Positions 37,987 through 45,705 are shown, numbered from the stretch's first letter. The stretch: DNA of 64,000 nt from Candidatus Vogelbacteria bacterium RIFOXYD1_FULL_51_18 (GCA_001823095.1 MHTL01000014.1:1881-65880); one strand, 5' to 3'. Notes: a model not told the origin generated them from the letters alone. Made by a program: numbers and translations.

Positions 37987-38661
37987 CTAACTCAAATCTT
38001 TCTTCCTTTCCTCAAATTCTTTTTTATCAATCTCACCTTTAGCATACCGTTTCTGCAAAATTTCAAGCGCGGATTTTTCGTGATTGTGCGTGCCGCGCGA
38101 TTGATTCGTAAGCCATTTGATAAGCGCGACAATACCCGCGATTATCAATACCCACCAGAGGATCATAAAAATCCAGCCGAACGAGCCAAAAGGCCCAGAT
38201 CCAAAATTCATCATACTCCCTCCCCACATCATATTCATCATCGGCATCCAGCCGCCGCTTATGGCCGGAAATGATGCTGATGTATCGCAACCAGAAAGAC
38301 GTTTACCCATGACGATGTGAATCTGCTCTTCGCCGTCTTCGCCATGCGCCTGAATCATCATGGCGTTCATGGCGGCATGGGACTCTCCAGCCATTTGTCC
38401 CATAAAATACTCGCCGAGAACTCCAAACTGCTCATCGCTTAAATTCTCGCAAGCGATTTCTTTTGCTTGCAGTGTATCCCAAAGCCCTTTGCCTTCCTGT
38501 TCTTCACGGGCGGTATGTTCAACGACCTCGTTCCAATCAACTGTCGTATTGGAGAGATTACCCATCCCTTCAACACCGTTCAGGACAGGCATTTGAGCAT
38601 CTACCGAACCGTCAACAAGTATTGACCCAAAAATGAAAGCCGTGATTAAAAGTTTTTTCAT
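37987..38661 (-). CDS. secreted/membrane Met-rich protein with C-terminal SHOCT domain
   Basis: Signal peptide MKKLLITAFIFGSILV, a Met-rich segment GGWMPMMNMMWGGSMMNFG, a TM helix, and a C-terminal LEILQKRYAKGEIDKKEFEERKKDL SHOCT-like motif. Confidence 0.6.
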   Translation of the reverse strand: MKKLLITAFIFGSILVDGSVDAQMPVLNGVEGMGNLSNTTVDWNEVVEHTAREEQEGKGLWDTLQAKEIACENLSDEQFGVLGEYFMGQMAGESHAAMNAMMIQAHGEDGEEQIHIVMGKRLSGCDTSASFPAISGGWMPMMNMMWGGSMMNFGSGPFGSFGWIFMILWWVLIIAGIVALIKWLTNQSRGTHNHEKSALEILQKRYAKGEIDKKEFEERKKDLS

Positions 38662-38683: not shown

Positions 38684-39067
38684 TTATTGTTTAGAAAAGA
38701 CGAAATACGAAAGATACCCAAGGAGTCCGAGTTGAATCGTAGGCGTTAAGCCGACGGAGAGAATTGGGATTATGGGCATATACTCATTATACGCCCATCT
38801 TCCCGTGTTGAGAGCGTACAATTCAATACATATCGAAATCAAGACGCCAATCGGAATAATGAGCCAGCTTCTTTTTCTGAGACTGGCGACCAGTACAAAG
38901 GGTAGAGTCAATAGGATAATAATAATCGCATCAGCGATAGAAGCTCGCAACAGAATAGTCTCGGTTATCTCTCCGCCCATATAAACGATATAAAAATAGG
39001 AATGTAAATTTTCCCAAATTAGATTAAGAAAAAATGACAAAATAAAAATTAAAGATACTTTTTTCAT
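38684..39067 (-). CDS. hypothetical multi-TM membrane protein (very AT-rich gene)
   Basis: Four predicted hydrophobic helices; composition is markedly AT-richer than the backbone. Confidence 0.5.
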   Translation of the reverse strand: MKKVSLIFILSFFLNLIWENLHSYFYIVYMGGEITETILLRASIADAIIIILLTLPFVLVASLRKRSWLIIPIGVLISICIELYALNTGRWAYNEYMPIIPILSVGLTPTIQLGLLGYLSYFVFSKQ

Positions 39068-39201: not shown

Positions 39202-40104
39202 TTATTTTTGTTCCCAGGGACTATTCAAAGACTCTTCTCCAATCTTCCACACGCCCTTTTCCAAGAAAGCCTCGATGGTCTGGCGGGTGGCCTTGTTGAT
39301 AAGATTTGAGTGAGAAAATTTGTTGCTCTTTGCATAGTCGGAAAGCAGAACAATCTTTTTGCTCTCTAAATATGCCAAACGCTTGTGATAACTATTGGTA
39401 AGAGCCTTACCAATAATCTCTTCCATAATTTCGGTTGCCCCCTTTTCATCAAACTCCCTGAAAGCGTCGTAGTATTTCTTCTGGTCGATAAACTTGATGT
39501 TTATCGGCACAAAGCCTTCCCGTATGAGGAGATAGTTGTTGATGACGCGCCCAATGCGGCCATTCCCGTCCATGAATGGGTGGAGATATTCAAACGCCAG
39601 ATGAAGCCGCGCGATGCGCTTGATGATATTTTCATGACTTGTCGCATTGTATTCCGCAAACATCTTCTCAAGACTCCCGTTGATTTCTTTTGGAGCAGGA
39701 GCAATATAACTGCCGACACGAACATACTCGTCATCCTTGCGAAATCGTCCGGCAACTTCATCACGAATATTTGACAGGAGCATCTTGTGGAGTGACAAGA
39801 TAACCTCAAAGCCGAGCTCCTGCTCTTTAGCCCGCTTGTTTATGTACGACACGACTCGGGCAAGATTTTTTGCTTCGAATATTTCTCGTTCAGAAATATA
39901 CCGGTCCAGATCAATCTGGAGAAGTATCTTTTCCGTTTCCTCAAGAGAGAGAGTACTGTTCTCGATAGCGTTTGAGTTGTATACCTGATCTGCGATTTCC
40001 GCTTCGCTTATAAGCTTAATAAGCGCATCTTTTCCGATGGCCGCTTTGTAATACCTTTCCCTAAACAGATTGATTTTATTAAGTGCTCTAGCTGTTTTCG
40101 CCAT
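39202..40104 (-). CDS. Fic/DOC-family protein (putative AMPylase)
   Basis: Canonical Fic motif HPFMDGNGRIGR. Confidence 0.9.
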   Translation of the reverse strand: MAKTARALNKINLFRERYYKAAIGKDALIKLISEAEIADQVYNSNAIENSTLSLEETEKILLQIDLDRYISEREIFEAKNLARVVSYINKRAKEQELGFEVILSLHKMLLSNIRDEVAGRFRKDDEYVRVGSYIAPAPKEINGSLEKMFAEYNATSHENIIKRIARLHLAFEYLHPFMDGNGRIGRVINNYLLIREGFVPINIKFIDQKKYYDAFREFDEKGATEIMEEIIGKALTNSYHKRLAYLESKKIVLLSDYAKSNKFSHSNLINKATRQTIEAFLEKGVWKIGEESLNSPWEQK

Positions 40105-40157: not shown

Positions 40158-40582
40158 TCTCTTTTTTCTTATACTTTCACGATTTTGGACATATAGCCCC
40201 TCTGCCTTTCAGCAGTATAACAAAAAGTGTCTCATATTGGCTCCGGAGTTAAAACCTTCACAAACCCCGAAGGAAAAACAAGTTCCCTACGAGGCATGCT
40301 TTTGAAATTATTCTGCCAAATCTGATACACAAATCCAAAAAGCAAAATCTGAAGTGATGCGCCCCGCCACTATTTTTCTGGGACAAAGGAGGCGGGGCTG
40401 GGCGACCTGTCCGCCGTAGCTTTAGCAAAGGCGGAGCGAACCCTCTCGTCTTCAAAATCCGAGTTCGTATCTAGTTTATTGGCTCCCACTACTGAACGAG
40501 TTTAGAACAATAGATTGGAAGGGTATAAAGCAAGAACTTGAGCTTAGCGGTATTATGACGCTACTGGGCCAGAGAGGTTTTG

Positions 40583-41026
40583 TTAGCGTCTAACCTTATC
40601 GGTTTCAAGATGGTTTTCTGTTATGGCCACAACATAGAAAGTTCGTTCTGGCTCAATATCAAAATAGAATATCCGTGCTCTTTGTTGTAGTTTTATTTCC
40701 TTGAGTTCAATGCCTTCAGCAATGCCCCTGTATAGCTTTTTGTATTCGCTATCGTATCTCATAGGTATTCGGTCCACATAGTTTCTTTGAAAATCGGCCT
40801 CGGGGCGGATTTTTGTTCCTATGGTTTTGAGAGTTTCTATGGCCCTTTTTGCTTTGTTGCCGCCGAGCTCTGAAATCTCGCACATTCTTTCGTTGTATTT
40901 TGCAAAAGAGATTACATAAGGAATTGCCTCAGGTGCTTCTGTGTCCTGAGGCAATTCTTGAGCGATTTGAGAAAGTTTGTCTATTTCATCACTTGGCTCT
41001 GTGGCTTGTTTTGGAATGTCGGTCAT
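40583..41026 (-). CDS. uncharacterised 147-aa protein, candidate toxin partner of the Panacea-domain antitoxin (weak RelE/HigB-like C-terminus)
   Basis: ATGA overlap with the upstream Panacea gene. C-terminal YRGIAEGIELKEIKLQQRARIFYFDIEPERTFYVVAITENH resembles the RelE/ParE/HigB (Gp49-like) beta-strand core; acidic N-terminal 50 aa. Confidence 0.5.
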   Translation of the reverse strand: MTDIPKQATEPSDEIDKLSQIAQELPQDTEAPEAIPYVISFAKYNERMCEISELGGNKAKRAIETLKTIGTKIRPEADFQRNYVDRIPMRYDSEYKKLYRGIAEGIELKEIKLQQRARIFYFDIEPERTFYVVAITENHLETDKVRR

Positions 41027-41526
41027 TTGTGCTTCTTGGCCTCTTCCAATTTTTCAGAGTAGTAATTTTTCATTGATTCAAGGGATATTTCGTTTTCTGA
41101 GTTTTCATAATGCTGAAGGCCCTTTCGTGCTTCTCGCCACGGCTCTTCTGAGTGCGTGAGCATTTCCAAATAACCAGCATCAAGTTTTCCGTATGCGTTC
41201 CATACGGTATCAATAAGTTCTTTTGACTTGCCCGAAATGTTAAGCGTGTCTGATTTTATCTCTTCCTGTATCGGTTCAAATCCGAACTTTTTATATAGCA
41301 CATACAAACTGCGAACTGCTGGCCCGTGCACCCACGCTTCAATCGGCTCACTGAAGAGTTTTTTGTTATTCAATACCAAAGACCAGGCCTGTGCGTAATA
41401 GACCAGTTTTTGGAGTTTTTTATTCGTTATCGGCTCTTTTTCTTGGCTGGCGAGATATAAGAAATATCGGCCTACATCCCGTGCCTTTAAGGTTTTTTGA
41501 GAGTGTAAGGCCATAGGTATTTTCAT
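41023..41526 (-). CDS. Panacea-domain (DUF4065, SocA/PanA-like) antitoxin
   Basis: NKKLQKLVYYAQAWSLVLNNKKLFSEPIEAWVHGPAVRSLYVLY matches the Panacea core, and the N-terminal DVGRYFLYL matches the family leader. Confidence 0.75.
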   Translation of the reverse strand: MKIPMALHSQKTLKARDVGRYFLYLASQEKEPITNKKLQKLVYYAQAWSLVLNNKKLFSEPIEAWVHGPAVRSLYVLYKKFGFEPIQEEIKSDTLNISGKSKELIDTVWNAYGKLDAGYLEMLTHSEEPWREARKGLQHYENSENEISLESMKNYYSEKLEEAKKHK

Positions 41527-41537
41527 AGTAGCAATTC

Positions 41538-41555
41538 TGTAAACAGTTGTAAACA
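41538..41555 (-). promoter_or_regulatory. direct-repeat operator-like element TGTTTACA-ac-TGTTTACA (minus-strand sense) upstream of the Panacea gene
   Basis: Two 8-mers at 10-bp spacing, 12 nt upstream of the proposed ATG, in an AT-rich 110-bp gap after abiEii. Confidence 0.4.
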
Positions 41556-41638
41556 GACAGGAAGATGTTGATATTTCTGGCCGAGCGTGTAAACTAAAGT
41601 AAAGTATGAAAGAAGTAATGATGGATAGACTCATAATT

Positions 41639-42931
41639 TTATTTTAACAAGTCATCAAAGTCGTGTCTGATTAGATCTTCTTTCCGAAGAACGATCTGTT
41701 CCTTCTGATTCAGGTTGTCAGCGGATACACGGATAAGTTTTGTCATCAGGGTGTCACCAACAAGTTCATAGTTAATTTTCTTCAAATAGGCCTCGATTTT
41801 TTCGTAAAATAGAGAGGCGTATTCTTTCTGCTTTTTCTCTGATGTCGGTCTACTGCTAGAACCATTTGCTGAAAACTCGATGCTGTCACTCACTACGTTG
41901 TTGATTGGAAACGAAACCTCGATGTCTTTGAAAAGAAACCAGTACTCGCTCAAGTTATATATAATGCGCACGTGGTCGCCCTCTTTCGTGCTGTACTCAA
42001 AAATGAAAGAGAACACATCAGTCCGGAAGTCCTCGAACACTCGCACTCTTTCGTATTTTGATACGGTTCTGATTTTATATTTATCGCGTAGCTGAAAGAA
42101 AGTGTCGCGCCAGTTCGCAAGCCAGTTAGTGACGAAACGAGGGTCAAGAAAGAGCGGTGAGAGGTCATTTTTGAGATTTTCTTCGCTTACGTTGTTCATT
42201 TTTACCGCAAGTTTTGTGAACAGTGTCCGATAATCTTTTGCTTCTTCCACATTCTTTGCTTTGAGATAGTCAAGGTCGGGTACGATTTTCTTACTCATGT
42301 ACCAAAGTAAATCGTAGATGTCGCGCCCTTTTTCTTCATACACCGCCTCGCCGACGCCACGCGTTCCGCGAAGGAAAATTGCAGCGATTTTGCTCGCCAT
42401 AAGAGAAGAGAGGTTGTATGTCCGGATTACGAATGACAACTGTCCATGATTCTGCGGTATTCTTTCCGTAACAACGCCGCCGGGCGGTGCAAACTGATTA
42501 CAATCAACTTTCACATGAATCCATTCGGAAGCGTAGCCCTCAATCAAACTGCCAGCTCGGAATTTAAGCGTTATGCCTCGATTGTTCGTGATAGAGATTT
42601 TCAAAAATTCCGCGTCAACTCCATAGACTTTTGCGAAATGCTTTTCTGCCTCTTCTTTGAATTCGTTGAGAAAGTCGCTGTCAACCTTGTGGCTTACCTC
42701 AAAATCCAAATCAACGGACATTCGGTCGAGGTCATAGCAGATGCGAAGCGCTGAGCCGCCATACATTATCCATTTGTTATATTCCGGATGATGATAAGTG
42801 AAATCGAGGACATAGAACTGCAACTCCTCTTTAAGAACGTTGAGGCGCGTCTCGGGATCGGAAATGCTAACGCCATAGGTCGAAAGGCCATCAAGTTTGC
42901 TTTTCAGGACTGTTAGTATCTGATCACTCAT
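41639..42931 (-). CDS. abiEii: AbiEii/AbiGii-family nucleotidyltransferase toxin (DUF1814)
   Basis: IMYGGSALRICYDLDRMSVDLDFEVS matches the AbiEii NTase motif (GGTAL...R.SEDLDF); 430 aa. Confidence 0.85.
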   Translation of the reverse strand: MSDQILTVLKSKLDGLSTYGVSISDPETRLNVLKEELQFYVLDFTYHHPEYNKWIMYGGSALRICYDLDRMSVDLDFEVSHKVDSDFLNEFKEEAEKHFAKVYGVDAEFLKISITNNRGITLKFRAGSLIEGYASEWIHVKVDCNQFAPPGGVVTERIPQNHGQLSFVIRTYNLSSLMASKIAAIFLRGTRGVGEAVYEEKGRDIYDLLWYMSKKIVPDLDYLKAKNVEEAKDYRTLFTKLAVKMNNVSEENLKNDLSPLFLDPRFVTNWLANWRDTFFQLRDKYKIRTVSKYERVRVFEDFRTDVFSFIFEYSTKEGDHVRIIYNLSEYWFLFKDIEVSFPINNVVSDSIEFSANGSSSRPTSEKKQKEYASLFYEKIEAYLKKINYELVGDTLMTKLIRVSADNLNQKEQIVLRKEDLIRHDFDDLLK

Positions 42932-43541
42932 GGAGATATGTTTTTACTTTTTCATAAAATTTCTTCCGCTCCTCCTCGTCCATCTCATCAATATCTATCC
43001 GCAATTCTTTTACCATCTTTGTAATATCTTCAAACCGGACGCTTCGAAACTGATGCGTTCTGAAGTACAGCAAGTCGAATAGTGCTTTTGATGGAGAAGC
43101 AATAAAAAAATCAAATTTTCCTTTCACAAGAGAGTAATCCGAAAAGAGATTCTTATTGATTGACTGGTATGAAAAAGTCCCCGCCTTCGTTTCATAATCC
43201 CGTGTGATTTTCGGTGTAACCGACGTGATAGAGCGTATCGCTTCAGTGGCGAGATTATAATACTGGAGCGCAGTCCACGAGCTTACGTAGGAAGGCGTAC
43301 GGAGAATGTTTGCAAGGTAGAAAGAATACGAGATATCGCTTTTATTATCTGCAAAAAAATCGGCGGTAATATACAAGCCATTTTTCAGCGGCAAAATCTC
43401 TTTGCGCTTCAAAAAACGGCTGATGTATGTATTTACCGTACTATTTTTCAGCCCCAACTGACTACCAAGCTGGTATACTGTACTTTTGGTGAAATGGGGC
43501 AAACTATTAAGCTGTTCCAACAGATTTTTCTTGCTTTTCAT
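42924..43541 (-). CDS. abiEi: AbiEi-family antitoxin/transcriptional regulator (wHTH N-domain)
   Basis: N-terminal wHTH (TVYQLGSQLGLKNSTVNTYISRFLKRKEILPLKNGLYI); 8-nt overlap with abiEii. Confidence 0.8.
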   Translation of the reverse strand: MKSKKNLLEQLNSLPHFTKSTVYQLGSQLGLKNSTVNTYISRFLKRKEILPLKNGLYITADFFADNKSDISYSFYLANILRTPSYVSSWTALQYYNLATEAIRSITSVTPKITRDYETKAGTFSYQSINKNLFSDYSLVKGKFDFFIASPSKALFDLLYFRTHQFRSVRFEDITKMVKELRIDIDEMDEEERKKFYEKVKTYLHE

Positions 43542-44061: not shown

Positions 44062-45435
44062 ATGAATAAATTCTTTCTCTACGCGCGAAAATCTACCGAC
44101 GAGCCGGACAGGCAGATTTTGTCTATCGAAGCGCAGATACACGAGTTGAAAGAATTTGCAGAGCGAGAGCATTTGGAGATCGTGGACACTTTTATCGAGT
44201 CGCAAACGGCGAAGGAGCCGGGGCGACCTATTTTTAATCAAATGCTCTCGCTTATTGAAAAAGGGAAAGCCAATGGAGTTGTGGCGTGGCACCCAGATCG
44301 TCTCGCGCGCAACAGCGTTGATGGTGGGCGTATTATCTACCTTATTGACATCGCTAAGGTGGTTGCGCTCAAATTTCCGACTTTTTGGTTTGAACCCACG
44401 CCACAAGGCAAATTTATGCTCTCAATCGCTTTCGGGCAGAGCAAATACTATGTTGATAATCTTTCAGAGAATGTGAAGCGCGGTTTGCGACAGAAAGTGC
44501 GCCGTGGCGAGCAAAGCGGACAAGCGCCGACCGGATATTTGAATGATAAAGCGAATCGTGTGATCGTACCCGATCCGGCGCGCTTTAAGTTTGTCCGCGA
44601 ATTGTTCGAAGCATACGCCACGGGTTCACATTCTCTGAAAGAAACTGGGAATTTGCTCTCTGCCCGAGGCTTGGTTAGTCGGAACGGCAATGTGCTTACC
44701 ATTTCGAATATTCAAATGATTTTGCGTAATCCGTTTTACTACGGGGCGTTTAAGTTCAATGGCGAGGAGTATCAAGGTAAGCACAAGCCAGCGATAACAA
44801 AGAAACTTTTTGATCAGTGCCAAGCGGTGATGGCGCGAAAAGCGCACCCCACTAAGCGAGGCGAGCAAAAGCATATTCTTCGCGGAGTTTTTTCGTGCGC
44901 AGAGTGCGGTTGCGGTATCACAAGCGAAGTGCAGAAAGGTCATGTGTATTATCGGTGCACGAAAAAGAAAGGTATCTGCGCACAACCCTATGTCCGCGAA
45001 GAGTTGCTCGCCTCGCAAATCACCGAGTATCTGCAAAAAGTTTCTTTGTCTTCGGCGTGGGCAAATGAGATGCTTGCTCTCTTGGAGAAGGAGCAAGCAG
45101 AAACTACCCACGCCGATGCCGATTTCGTTCAAAATCTAAAGCTCAAAATTAAGGAGTGCGAGGAGAAGCTTGACCGGCTTCTTGACGCGCATCTTGAGCA
45201 AACGCTATCGAGCGAAGAATATGTCGCCAAGAAGCGCGTTCTCCTCGACTCTAAAATTGATTTTGAGCAGAAGTTGAAGGATTTTGAGCGAAACGGCAAT
45301 CATTGGCTCGAACCGGCCCGACAATTCGTTTTAGCGGCTCAACAAGCCAAAATTATCGCTTTGCAAGAAAATCCCGTCGCGGGACGGGATTTTCTCAAAA
45401 GAATTGGCTCGAACCACGTCGACAATTCGTTTTAG
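44062..45435 (+). CDS. large serine recombinase (resolvase catalytic domain + recombinase domain + zinc ribbon); C-terminus apparently frameshifted by a 101-bp tandem duplication
   Basis: Catalytic YARKSTDEPDRQILSIEAQ (Ser nucleophile) and a zinc ribbon CAECGCG...YYRC. The alternate frame 45303-45644 re-encodes the same peptide and continues to the tRNA. Confidence 0.9.
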   Translation: MNKFFLYARKSTDEPDRQILSIEAQIHELKEFAEREHLEIVDTFIESQTAKEPGRPIFNQMLSLIEKGKANGVVAWHPDRLARNSVDGGRIIYLIDIAKVVALKFPTFWFEPTPQGKFMLSIAFGQSKYYVDNLSENVKRGLRQKVRRGEQSGQAPTGYLNDKANRVIVPDPARFKFVRELFEAYATGSHSLKETGNLLSARGLVSRNGNVLTISNIQMILRNPFYYGAFKFNGEEYQGKHKPAITKKLFDQCQAVMARKAHPTKRGEQKHILRGVFSCAECGCGITSEVQKGHVYYRCTKKKGICAQPYVREELLASQITEYLQKVSLSSAWANEMLALLEKEQAETTHADADFVQNLKLKIKECEEKLDRLLDAHLEQTLSSEEYVAKKRVLLDSKIDFEQKLKDFERNGNHWLEPARQFVLAAQQAKIIALQENPVAGRDFLKRIGSNHVDNSF

Positions 45436-45520
45436 CGGCTCAACAAGCCAAAATTATCGCTTTGCAAGAAAATCCCGTCGCGGGACGGGATTTTCTCAAA
45501 AGAATTGGCTCGAACCACGT
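45302..45520. repeat. 101-bp tandem direct repeat, 2 full copies plus a 17-nt third copy, each starting ATTGGCTCGAACC
   Basis: Units at 45302-45402 and 45403-45503 are identical apart from a 6-nt patch (ggcccg vs acgtcg); partial unit at 45504-45520. Confidence 0.9.
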
Positions 45521-45629
45521 TTTGCGCTCGCAAGCGATTTGCTTTGAACCTAAAAAGTCGTGGAAAATTCTTGCCGATTTGCCCGCCGAGGGGCGAAGCC
45601 CCGAGGCGGAGAACTCGTATCATCCTATT

Positions 45630-45705
45630 TGGCTCCGCGGCTAGGGCTCGAACCTAGGACATCCTCGTTAACAGCGAGGCGCTCTACCAACTGAGCTACC
45701 GCGGA
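45630..45705 (-). tRNA. tRNA-Asn (anticodon GTT), CCA encoded
   Basis: Reverse complement reads TCCGCGG-TA-GCTC-AGTTGGT-AGAGC-G-CCTCG-CTGTTAA-CGAGG-ATGTC-CTAGG-TTCGAGC-CCTAG-CCGCGGA-G-CCA, a clean cloverleaf. Confidence 0.85.

Follow-up and report, generated by a model that had tools for sequence, protein, structure and literature searches.

Toxin-antitoxin systems in which a Panacea-domain antitoxin (PanA) is paired with a toxin (PanT) were defined as PanAT systems by Kurata et al. 2022 (PNAS), with ParE among the listed partner domains (PMC8832971). In the part of their Dataset S1 considered here, some PanA-associated clusters match HigB-2/RelE/YoeB/ParE by HHpred; two of these, pT15/T14 and pT31/T28, reach 99.7% and 89% by HHpred, respectively, have the gene order A|T, and were not tested experimentally (PMC8832971). 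Here, we analyzed a Panacea-containing locus in a 64,000-nucleotide (nt) stretch of DNA from Candidatus Vogelbacteria bacterium RIFOXYD1_FULL_51_18 (GCA_001823095.1, MHTL01000014.1:1881-65880; this whole stretch is called the window below), in which a Panacea gene, panA, is followed by a gene for a 147-amino-acid (aa) protein. The host belongs to the Patescibacteria (Parcubacteria-group), in the candidate phyla radiation (CPR). A conserved pairing of PanA with a partner of RelE fold is very probable, and the locus probably represents a bicistronic PanA-PanT module, a type II toxin-antitoxin system.

Like pT15/T14 and pT31/T28 as they appear in that part of the dataset, the locus has a Panacea antitoxin without an N-terminal domain first and then a small toxin with a predicted RelE/ParE-superfamily fold, in the same gene order and with an overlap or a short gap between the genes. 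Unlike those clusters, which are of RefSeq origin (Methanobrevibacter, Taylorella, and others) and are recognizable by HHpred at 89-99.7%, the present family is undetectable by sequence profiles, is nearly confined to metagenome-assembled genomes (MAGs) of Patescibacteria, and has a conserved tail of ~35 residues as well as an extra strand (residues 86-88) and an extra helix (93-99). No Parcubacteria or Patescibacteria entry was found in the same part of Dataset S1 (PMC8832971), and a literature search for DUF4065/Panacea in Patescibacteria/CPR returned no paper linking the two. The original prediction, made from the sequence alone, had proposed a candidate new PanA-toxin pair. This overstates the novelty: only the sequence family and the host range are new, and PanA with RelE-like toxins had already been catalogued. 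Because RelE/HigB/YoeB-like PanA partners are listed in the portion of Dataset S1 of Kurata et al. 2022 referred to above (PMC8832971), what the locus adds to an already known kind of system is a new sequence family in new hosts, and the concept is unchanged.

The Panacea gene and its conserved partner

The sequence features on which the original prediction drew were located in the window where it had placed them, on the minus strand. The open reading frame (ORF) 41023-41526 (minus) contains the Panacea core KLQKLVYYAQAWSLV...EAWVHGPAVRSLY, and the Panacea/DUF4065 assignment was confirmed by a match to the Pfam family SocA_Panacea (PF13274) with an expectation value (E) of 6.3e-21 and 75.8 bits, above the curated cut-off of 25.7, over profile positions 1-112 of 113. 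The product also matches PHROG 1281 (1.9e-48) and, at 64 bits, the NCBIfam SocA model NF047745 (cut-off 190; E 1.4e-17, aligned residues 15-157). On these profile matches, the upstream gene encodes a stand-alone Panacea-domain protein. No helix-turn-helix (HTH), ribbon-helix-helix (RHH), AbrB, Phd, or other DNA-binding domain was found in PanA at E<=1 in Pfam and NCBIfam, and the Panacea/SocA alignment, which takes up residues 15-157 of 167, leaves no room for one.

Two in-frame ATG codons are present at the 5' end of panA, the one at 41526 yielding 167 aa and the second, at 41514, yielding 163 aa. The second is most likely the start, because the closest homologues begin at the equivalent Met (MALHS in L008, MTSHP in L022, and MAIYS in L011, where L numbers denote related loci), with L008 having no upstream ATG. 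The homologous PanA proteins are 159-162 aa long, in line with the shorter form. The ATG at 41526 was considered unlikely in view of the homologue starts and of its overlap with a -10-like TACTAT. As had been predicted, the TGA stop of panA overlaps the ATG of the 147-aa ORF (ATGA in cacaaATGAcc).

The 147-aa gene lies downstream of panA, is translationally coupled to it, and belongs to a conserved, previously unannotated family. It is present as a single copy in the window. Its product gave no match to Pfam, NCBIfam, PADLOC, or PHROGs at E<=1. Searches of PDB sequences with the protein and both family profiles (phmmer, hmmsearch) returned only a designed TPR protein, BRCT, and uL22, all at E>0.04, and tblastn against phage and plasmid collections found no relative. 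A word-indexed search led to at least 220 clusters at 90% identity, of which the best 120 of 220 were nearly all 146-148 aa long and 62-100% identical; more than 100 clusters hold members of 146-148 aa. Members that carry a name in their source are labelled "hypothetical protein" and belong to MAGs of Vogelbacteria, Portnoybacteria, Paceibacterota, or Parcubacteria. An exhaustive profile search (E<=1e-3) gave 318 representatives at 50% identity, mostly 135-190 aa, and almost all family members are from Patescibacteria MAGs. The pairwise ratio of nonsynonymous to synonymous substitution rates (dN/dS) was 0.10-0.20 against seven loci where dS was unsaturated. On this ratio and the length of 146-148 aa kept in more than 100 clusters, the gene is judged functional. 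In 138 diverse members, Y95 never varies; conservation reaches at least 90% at Y44, C49, E110, R118, F120, and H139.

Linkage to Panacea was examined in 24 other members: 16 further GTDB species loci, four members with differing flanks (P0068, P0020, P0054, and P0103), three distant members of 28-37% identity (P0270, P0178, and P0164), and P0169. A Panacea gene is directly upstream, on the same strand, in all 24, including the four with differing flanks and the three distant members; in P0169, the two are fused. The scan of one genome per GTDB species yielded 18 loci, from Parcubacteria-group lineages, Kazan, Moraniibacteriota, Doudnabacteria, Saccharibacteria-labelled MAGs, and two Ignavibacteria/Melioribacteraceae MAGs, and in all 18 the toxin start lies, on the same strand, within a few nt of the end of a PanA homologue (E 1e-54 to 1e-105 to the window protein). 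The same two neighbors, Panacea and this partner family, recur in genomes whose flanking genes differ, which bears out the predicted order of a Panacea antitoxin gene and then a conserved partner gene. The original prediction would have been weakened by a lack of Panacea-adjacent homologues elsewhere, and this is clearly not what was found (24/24). The fusion P0169 is an in-frame PanA-toxin protein of 306 aa, found on two contigs from different assemblies (L035 3001-3921; L036 2102-3022). In addition, the toxin homologue is split over two frames, with panA intact, at L022 3995-4440 (Ignavibacteria MAG) and L024 678-1123 (Doudnabacteria MAG); these split frames could reflect toxin pseudogenization or assembly error.

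Predicted fold and mode of action

An AlphaFold2 (AF2) model of the 147-aa protein computed on a 138-sequence alignment had a predicted local distance difference test (pLDDT) score of 88.2 and a predicted template modeling score (pTM) of 0.75; local pLDDT values exceeded 90 for most of residues 31-147 and were ~62 for residues 1-30. The order of elements in the model is a strand at 38-40, helices at 56-71 and 77-81, a strand at 86-88, a helix at 93-99, and strands at 109-112, 118-124, and 129-136. The N-terminal strand, helical hairpin, and three-stranded antiparallel sheet of the RelE/ParE fold are all found in the predicted structure. Comparison of the predicted structure with toxin folds, a check put forward in the original prediction, gave a Foldseek top 24 made up entirely of RelE/HigB/YoeB/YafQ or Txp40 proteins (best E 4e-3; target-normalized template modeling score up to 0.67). 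The fold comparison scores were 10.0 for Txp40, 8.7 for P. horikoshii RelE, 8.5 for E. coli HigB, 8.3 for S. aureus YoeB, 8.1 for M. jannaschii RelE3, 7.4 for T. thermophilus RelE, 7.2 for both YafQ and E. coli RelE, and 4.9-6.2 for ParE proteins. From the model, the globular core of the 147-aa family is predicted to have the RelE/ParE toxin fold. The C-terminal third of the protein had been described beforehand as weakly RelE/HigB-like; the likeness holds at the level of the fold, by AF2 and Foldseek, but extends to the whole core (residues 36-140). Similarly, only ~35 of the N-terminal 50 aa that had been set apart from any recognized domain lie outside the predicted fold, residues 36-50 being part of the globular domain as its first strand and loop.

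The aligned identity to the RelE/HigB/YoeB/YafQ interferases (PDB 1wmi, 6kml, 7v6w, 2a6q, and 4q2u) is 4-17%, with no significant profile match. The present protein has 147 aa against 84-104 aa in those toxins, and its partner is a Panacea protein where theirs is RelB, YefM, HigA, or DinJ. These four antitoxins bind DNA and autoregulate, whereas PanA here is without a DNA-binding domain. Txp40 of Xenorhabdus nematophila (PDB 7xbj), at 11-13% identity, is a secreted ~40-kDa protein active on insect cells, whose solved chains comprise 275-296 residues. Gp49/HigB-like PF05973 (phage N15 gp49) is the sole Pfam family matched repeatedly by members; the matches are weak and sub-threshold (5/138 members, best E 0.0066), and the window protein itself has none.

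The hhalign results were used for the alignment register alone and not as evidence of homology. In these non-significant alignments, R118 falls on RelE R61, YoeB R65, and Gp49 R63 in mutually consistent registers, E110 and K112 fall on RelE K52 and K54, and E110 falls on Gp49 E53; the Gp49 register places LKEIKL...RIFYF onto LFELR...R..Y. H139 is found just past the last strand, at the place of H83/Y84 in YoeB. The catalytic roles of the aligned RelE and YoeB residues are well established. The near-invariant E110, R118, and H139, together with Y95, would be the candidate active-site residues. The core (residues 36-147) is basic, with an isoelectric point (pI) of 9.2.

Several points weigh against a RelE-type toxin. 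The fold assignment depends on a predicted structure, and a first AF2 model, obtained with 52 close homologues, had a pLDDT of 56 and was discarded for the 138-sequence run. No significant sequence-profile match of the window protein to the RelE/ParE member families was found in Pfam or NCBIfam at E<=1. In hhalign, the family profile gave a probability below 1% against single E. coli RelE, YoeB, HigB, and N15 gp49 sequences, and 3.3% (E 0.013) against a 44-sequence Gp49 family profile. Because sequence homology to the RelE/ParE families is insignificant, the assignment of catalytic residues depends on non-significant alignments. Finally, the RelE/ParE fold also includes gyrase poisons.

Residues 1-35 are predicted to be disordered. 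The tail of the window protein has a pI of 4.05, with 9 acidic and 2 basic residues; acidity was rejected as a family-wide trait, the net charge being negative in 75/138 members and positive in 47/138. The tail itself is found family-wide (138 members), with a median length of 35 and a range of 26-66, and its conserved motifs include an N-terminal IP. The motif [ILVM][PS]xx[VAIL][ATVS]x[LIVM], 17-18 residues before the core, was present in 48/138 tails, compared with 2.2 in shuffles, and the close subfamily has the tail motif LPQxxEAPEAxPY. A motif at Leu18-Leu25 of the window protein reads LSQIAQEL. According to Ernits et al., stand-alone Panacea neutralizes directly and in one case contacts the unstructured N-terminus of the toxin (PMC10440598). 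By analogy, the tail may be a PanA-binding segment.

The best explanation, and one that we consider reasonably likely, is a type II system in which PanA neutralizes a RelE-fold toxin that is probably an mRNA interferase. The 147-aa protein would be a ribosome-dependent mRNA endonuclease of the RelE/HigB/YoeB type. PanA would bind and so neutralize it, possibly via the conserved motifs of the N-terminal tail; such direct binding has been demonstrated for other stand-alone Panacea antitoxins. Release or activation of the toxin, for example upon phage infection or loss of the island, would arrest translation. The PanAT pairs tested by Kurata et al. 2022 form stable complexes and neutralize with neither ClpXP nor Lon (PMC8832971).

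The same module could carry a ParE-like DNA-gyrase poison instead of an RNase, with PanA still neutralizing by binding; we regard this as quite improbable. The place of the SocA-SocB system of Caulobacter must also be considered, its antitoxin likewise carrying a Panacea domain. In a type VI-like scheme, PanA would be a SocA-type proteolytic adaptor that passes the toxin to ClpXP, with the disordered tail as a tether or degron. The extent of the SocA model alignment given above and the presence of a family-wide disordered tail with conserved short motifs would fit such a scheme, and Kurata et al. state that the two modes of neutralization need not exclude each other (PMC8832971). However, the score of PanA against the SocA equivalog is far under the cut-off, and the fold of the toxin is RelE-like and unrelated to SocB, so the pair does not belong to SocAB; the tested PanAT pairs do without ClpXP and Lon, and the natural PanA-toxin fusion is better explained by direct binding. 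Together, these make a proteolytic adaptor very unlikely.

The 147-aa protein might also be an inert RelE-fold partner (e.g., a co-regulator or sensor subunit), in which case the pair would not be a toxin-antitoxin system at all. Indeed, Kurata et al. found eight of their tested PanTs to be nontoxic in E. coli (PMC8832971), members of the close subfamily are unusually similar to each other (62-100% identity), and a covalent fusion to PanA is odd if a toxin must be released. We nevertheless find an inert partner improbable, given the classic toxin-antitoxin layout of small overlapping genes, located with AbiE and Fic on a mobile island, the basic core with conserved Glu, Arg, and His, and the two MAGs (L022 and L024) in which the toxin is frameshifted and panA is intact, a typical pattern of toxin inactivation.

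Promoter region and the operator question

Upstream of panA, the original prediction had noted two 8-mers, TGTTTACA, at 10-bp spacing and 12 nt from the antitoxin ATG. The repeat is present, with copies that are actually 9-mers, CTGTTTACA, at 41538-41546 and 41548-41556 (period 10) and found nowhere else in the window. Counted from the second ATG, the most likely antitoxin start, the distance is ~24 nt. The pattern TTTAC-N5-TTTAC occurs twice in the 64 kb, compared with 0.07 expected, and both pairs are within the same 110-nt intergenic region; the repeat is therefore not due to chance.

The repeat overlaps a promoter-like site (Table 1). The -10 of this site overlaps the first ATG and is ~10 nt from the conserved start, and the predicted transcript would thus have a short leader or be leaderless. 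The -10 region TG(n)TA(C/T)TAT is kept in L008, L014, L022, and L011. A TTTAC pair is found at -39/-29 from the start in the window, L014, L022, L008, and L009 (with one mismatch each in L008 and L009); it is conserved in position in 5/20 related loci and absent from the other 15. On the opposite strand, a divergent promoter-like site has as its -35 the conserved motif ATATCAA, read in reverse orientation, and is followed by a gene remnant (Table 1). The 391-aa divergent gene of L001/L009 begins at the same conserved sequence as this remnant. In related elements, the pair is divergent from a gene of 300-390 aa (L001 3238-4413; L006 3510-4403). Downstream of that gene is a recurrent mobile-element backbone, in which a small ORF and a SpoVG-like gene precede a ~375-aa gene, an HTH_17 gene, and a restriction-modification methylase. 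The intergenic region also serves the divergent gene in these related elements.

The repeat is real and is part of the conserved promoter region of one sub-lineage, and it could be a repressor site. Transcription of the pair would proceed from the predicted promoter overlapping the CTGTTTACA repeats. The autoregulatory operator of the original prediction, with PanA alone or the PanA-toxin complex bound to the direct repeat, is, in our judgment, unlikely. The repeat is non-random, is kept at the same position in 5 loci, and covers the promoter-like site from the -35 into the spacer, the expected position for a repressor, and the second TTTAC pair overlaps the divergent promoter. Yet the first copy is simply explained as a -35 hexamer, the repeat is missing from 15 of the 20 related loci, and PanA has neither a recognizable DNA-binding domain nor room for one. 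Moreover, Ernits et al. 2023 conclude that Panacea itself is probably no transcriptional autoregulator (PMC10440598). The intergenic region serves a divergent gene in relatives as well, and a protein binding it could be encoded elsewhere on the mobile element. The combination that defines a classical autoregulated type II operon, a DNA-binding antitoxin with an operator in its own promoter, is not seen here.

Island context and significance

The pair is nested between AbiE and Fic, as had been predicted, with AbiEi and AbiEii upstream and Fic downstream (Table 1). These genes are part of a low-GC stretch at ~38.5-45.5 kb (GC 0.39-0.49, compared with 0.53-0.58 on the flanks). This stretch of ~7 kb, adjacent to tRNA-Asn and with a serine recombinase inside, is consistent with an integrated island of stacked defense and toxin-antitoxin modules. 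An imperfect 20-nt direct repeat, 90% identical, is found near the GC boundaries (38446-38465 and 45527-45546), and its copies could be attachment-site marks. A 101-nt tandem duplication (45302-45503, 96% identical) lies across the 3' end of the recombinase gene, whose C-terminal coding sequence is present twice. Downstream of the toxin stop, a gap of ~320 nt (40258-40582) extends to the next terminator-like hairpin (40273-40255) and includes a GC-rich stretch unlike the island around it; neither an Rfam match nor a convincing ORF was found in this gap. A structured RNA at this place was dropped as a candidate, the Rfam scan of 38-46.5 kb having returned only tRNA-Asn and chance microRNA matches.

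Table 1. Positions of the panA pair, its promoter region, and neighboring features in the window.
Feature	Position	Strand	Remarks
panA, stand-alone Panacea/DUF4065 putative antitoxin gene	41023..41514	minus	163 aa, starts MALHSQKTLKA...
panT-like putative toxin gene	40583..41026	minus	147 aa; ATG overlaps panA stop (ATGA)
Direct repeat CTGTTTACA x2, period 10	41538..41556	minus	Distal copy contains -35 hexamer; proximal copy in promoter spacer
Promoter-like TTTACA-17 nt-TACTAT, TG before -10	41525..41553	minus	Promoter scan
Second TTTAC-N5-TTTAC pair	41589..41603	minus	Same intergenic region; conserved in L009, L020, and L022
Divergent promoter-like TTGATA-16-TAAACT	41568-41595	plus	-10 overlapped by second TTTAC pair
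Divergent gene remnant, 13 codons, MKEVMMDRLIILF then stop	41606..41647	plus	Cut off at AbiEii end
AbiEii	41639-42931		Upstream of pair
AbiEi	42924-43541		Upstream of pair
Fic/SoFic-like protein	39202-40104		Downstream of pair
Small membrane protein	38684-39067		Inside low-GC island
Large serine recombinase	44062-45435		Inside low-GC island
tRNA-Asn	45630-45705	minus	Low-GC stretch ends beside it

With the family described here, the RelE/ParE fold would gain a sizeable unannotated group of proteins, 318 clusters at 50% identity for which there is no Pfam or NCBIfam model. The PanA-PanT network would be extended to the Patescibacteria, ultra-small symbionts whose MAGs are missing from RefSeq-based surveys of Panacea. 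The strict linkage to Panacea, the conserved tail that is predicted to be disordered, and the natural fusion make the family a convenient case for the recognition of toxins by stand-alone Panacea. A further idea, which we put forward as a rather doubtful one, is that the tail motifs are a portable docking handle for stand-alone Panacea, which would grip the tail and not the enzyme fold, either to neutralize the toxin or to sense and release it. If this were true and similar tails were found on unrelated PanT families, it would provide a simple structural explanation for the hyperpromiscuity of Panacea, and the PanA-toxin fusion would be a single-chain, trigger-activated toxin.

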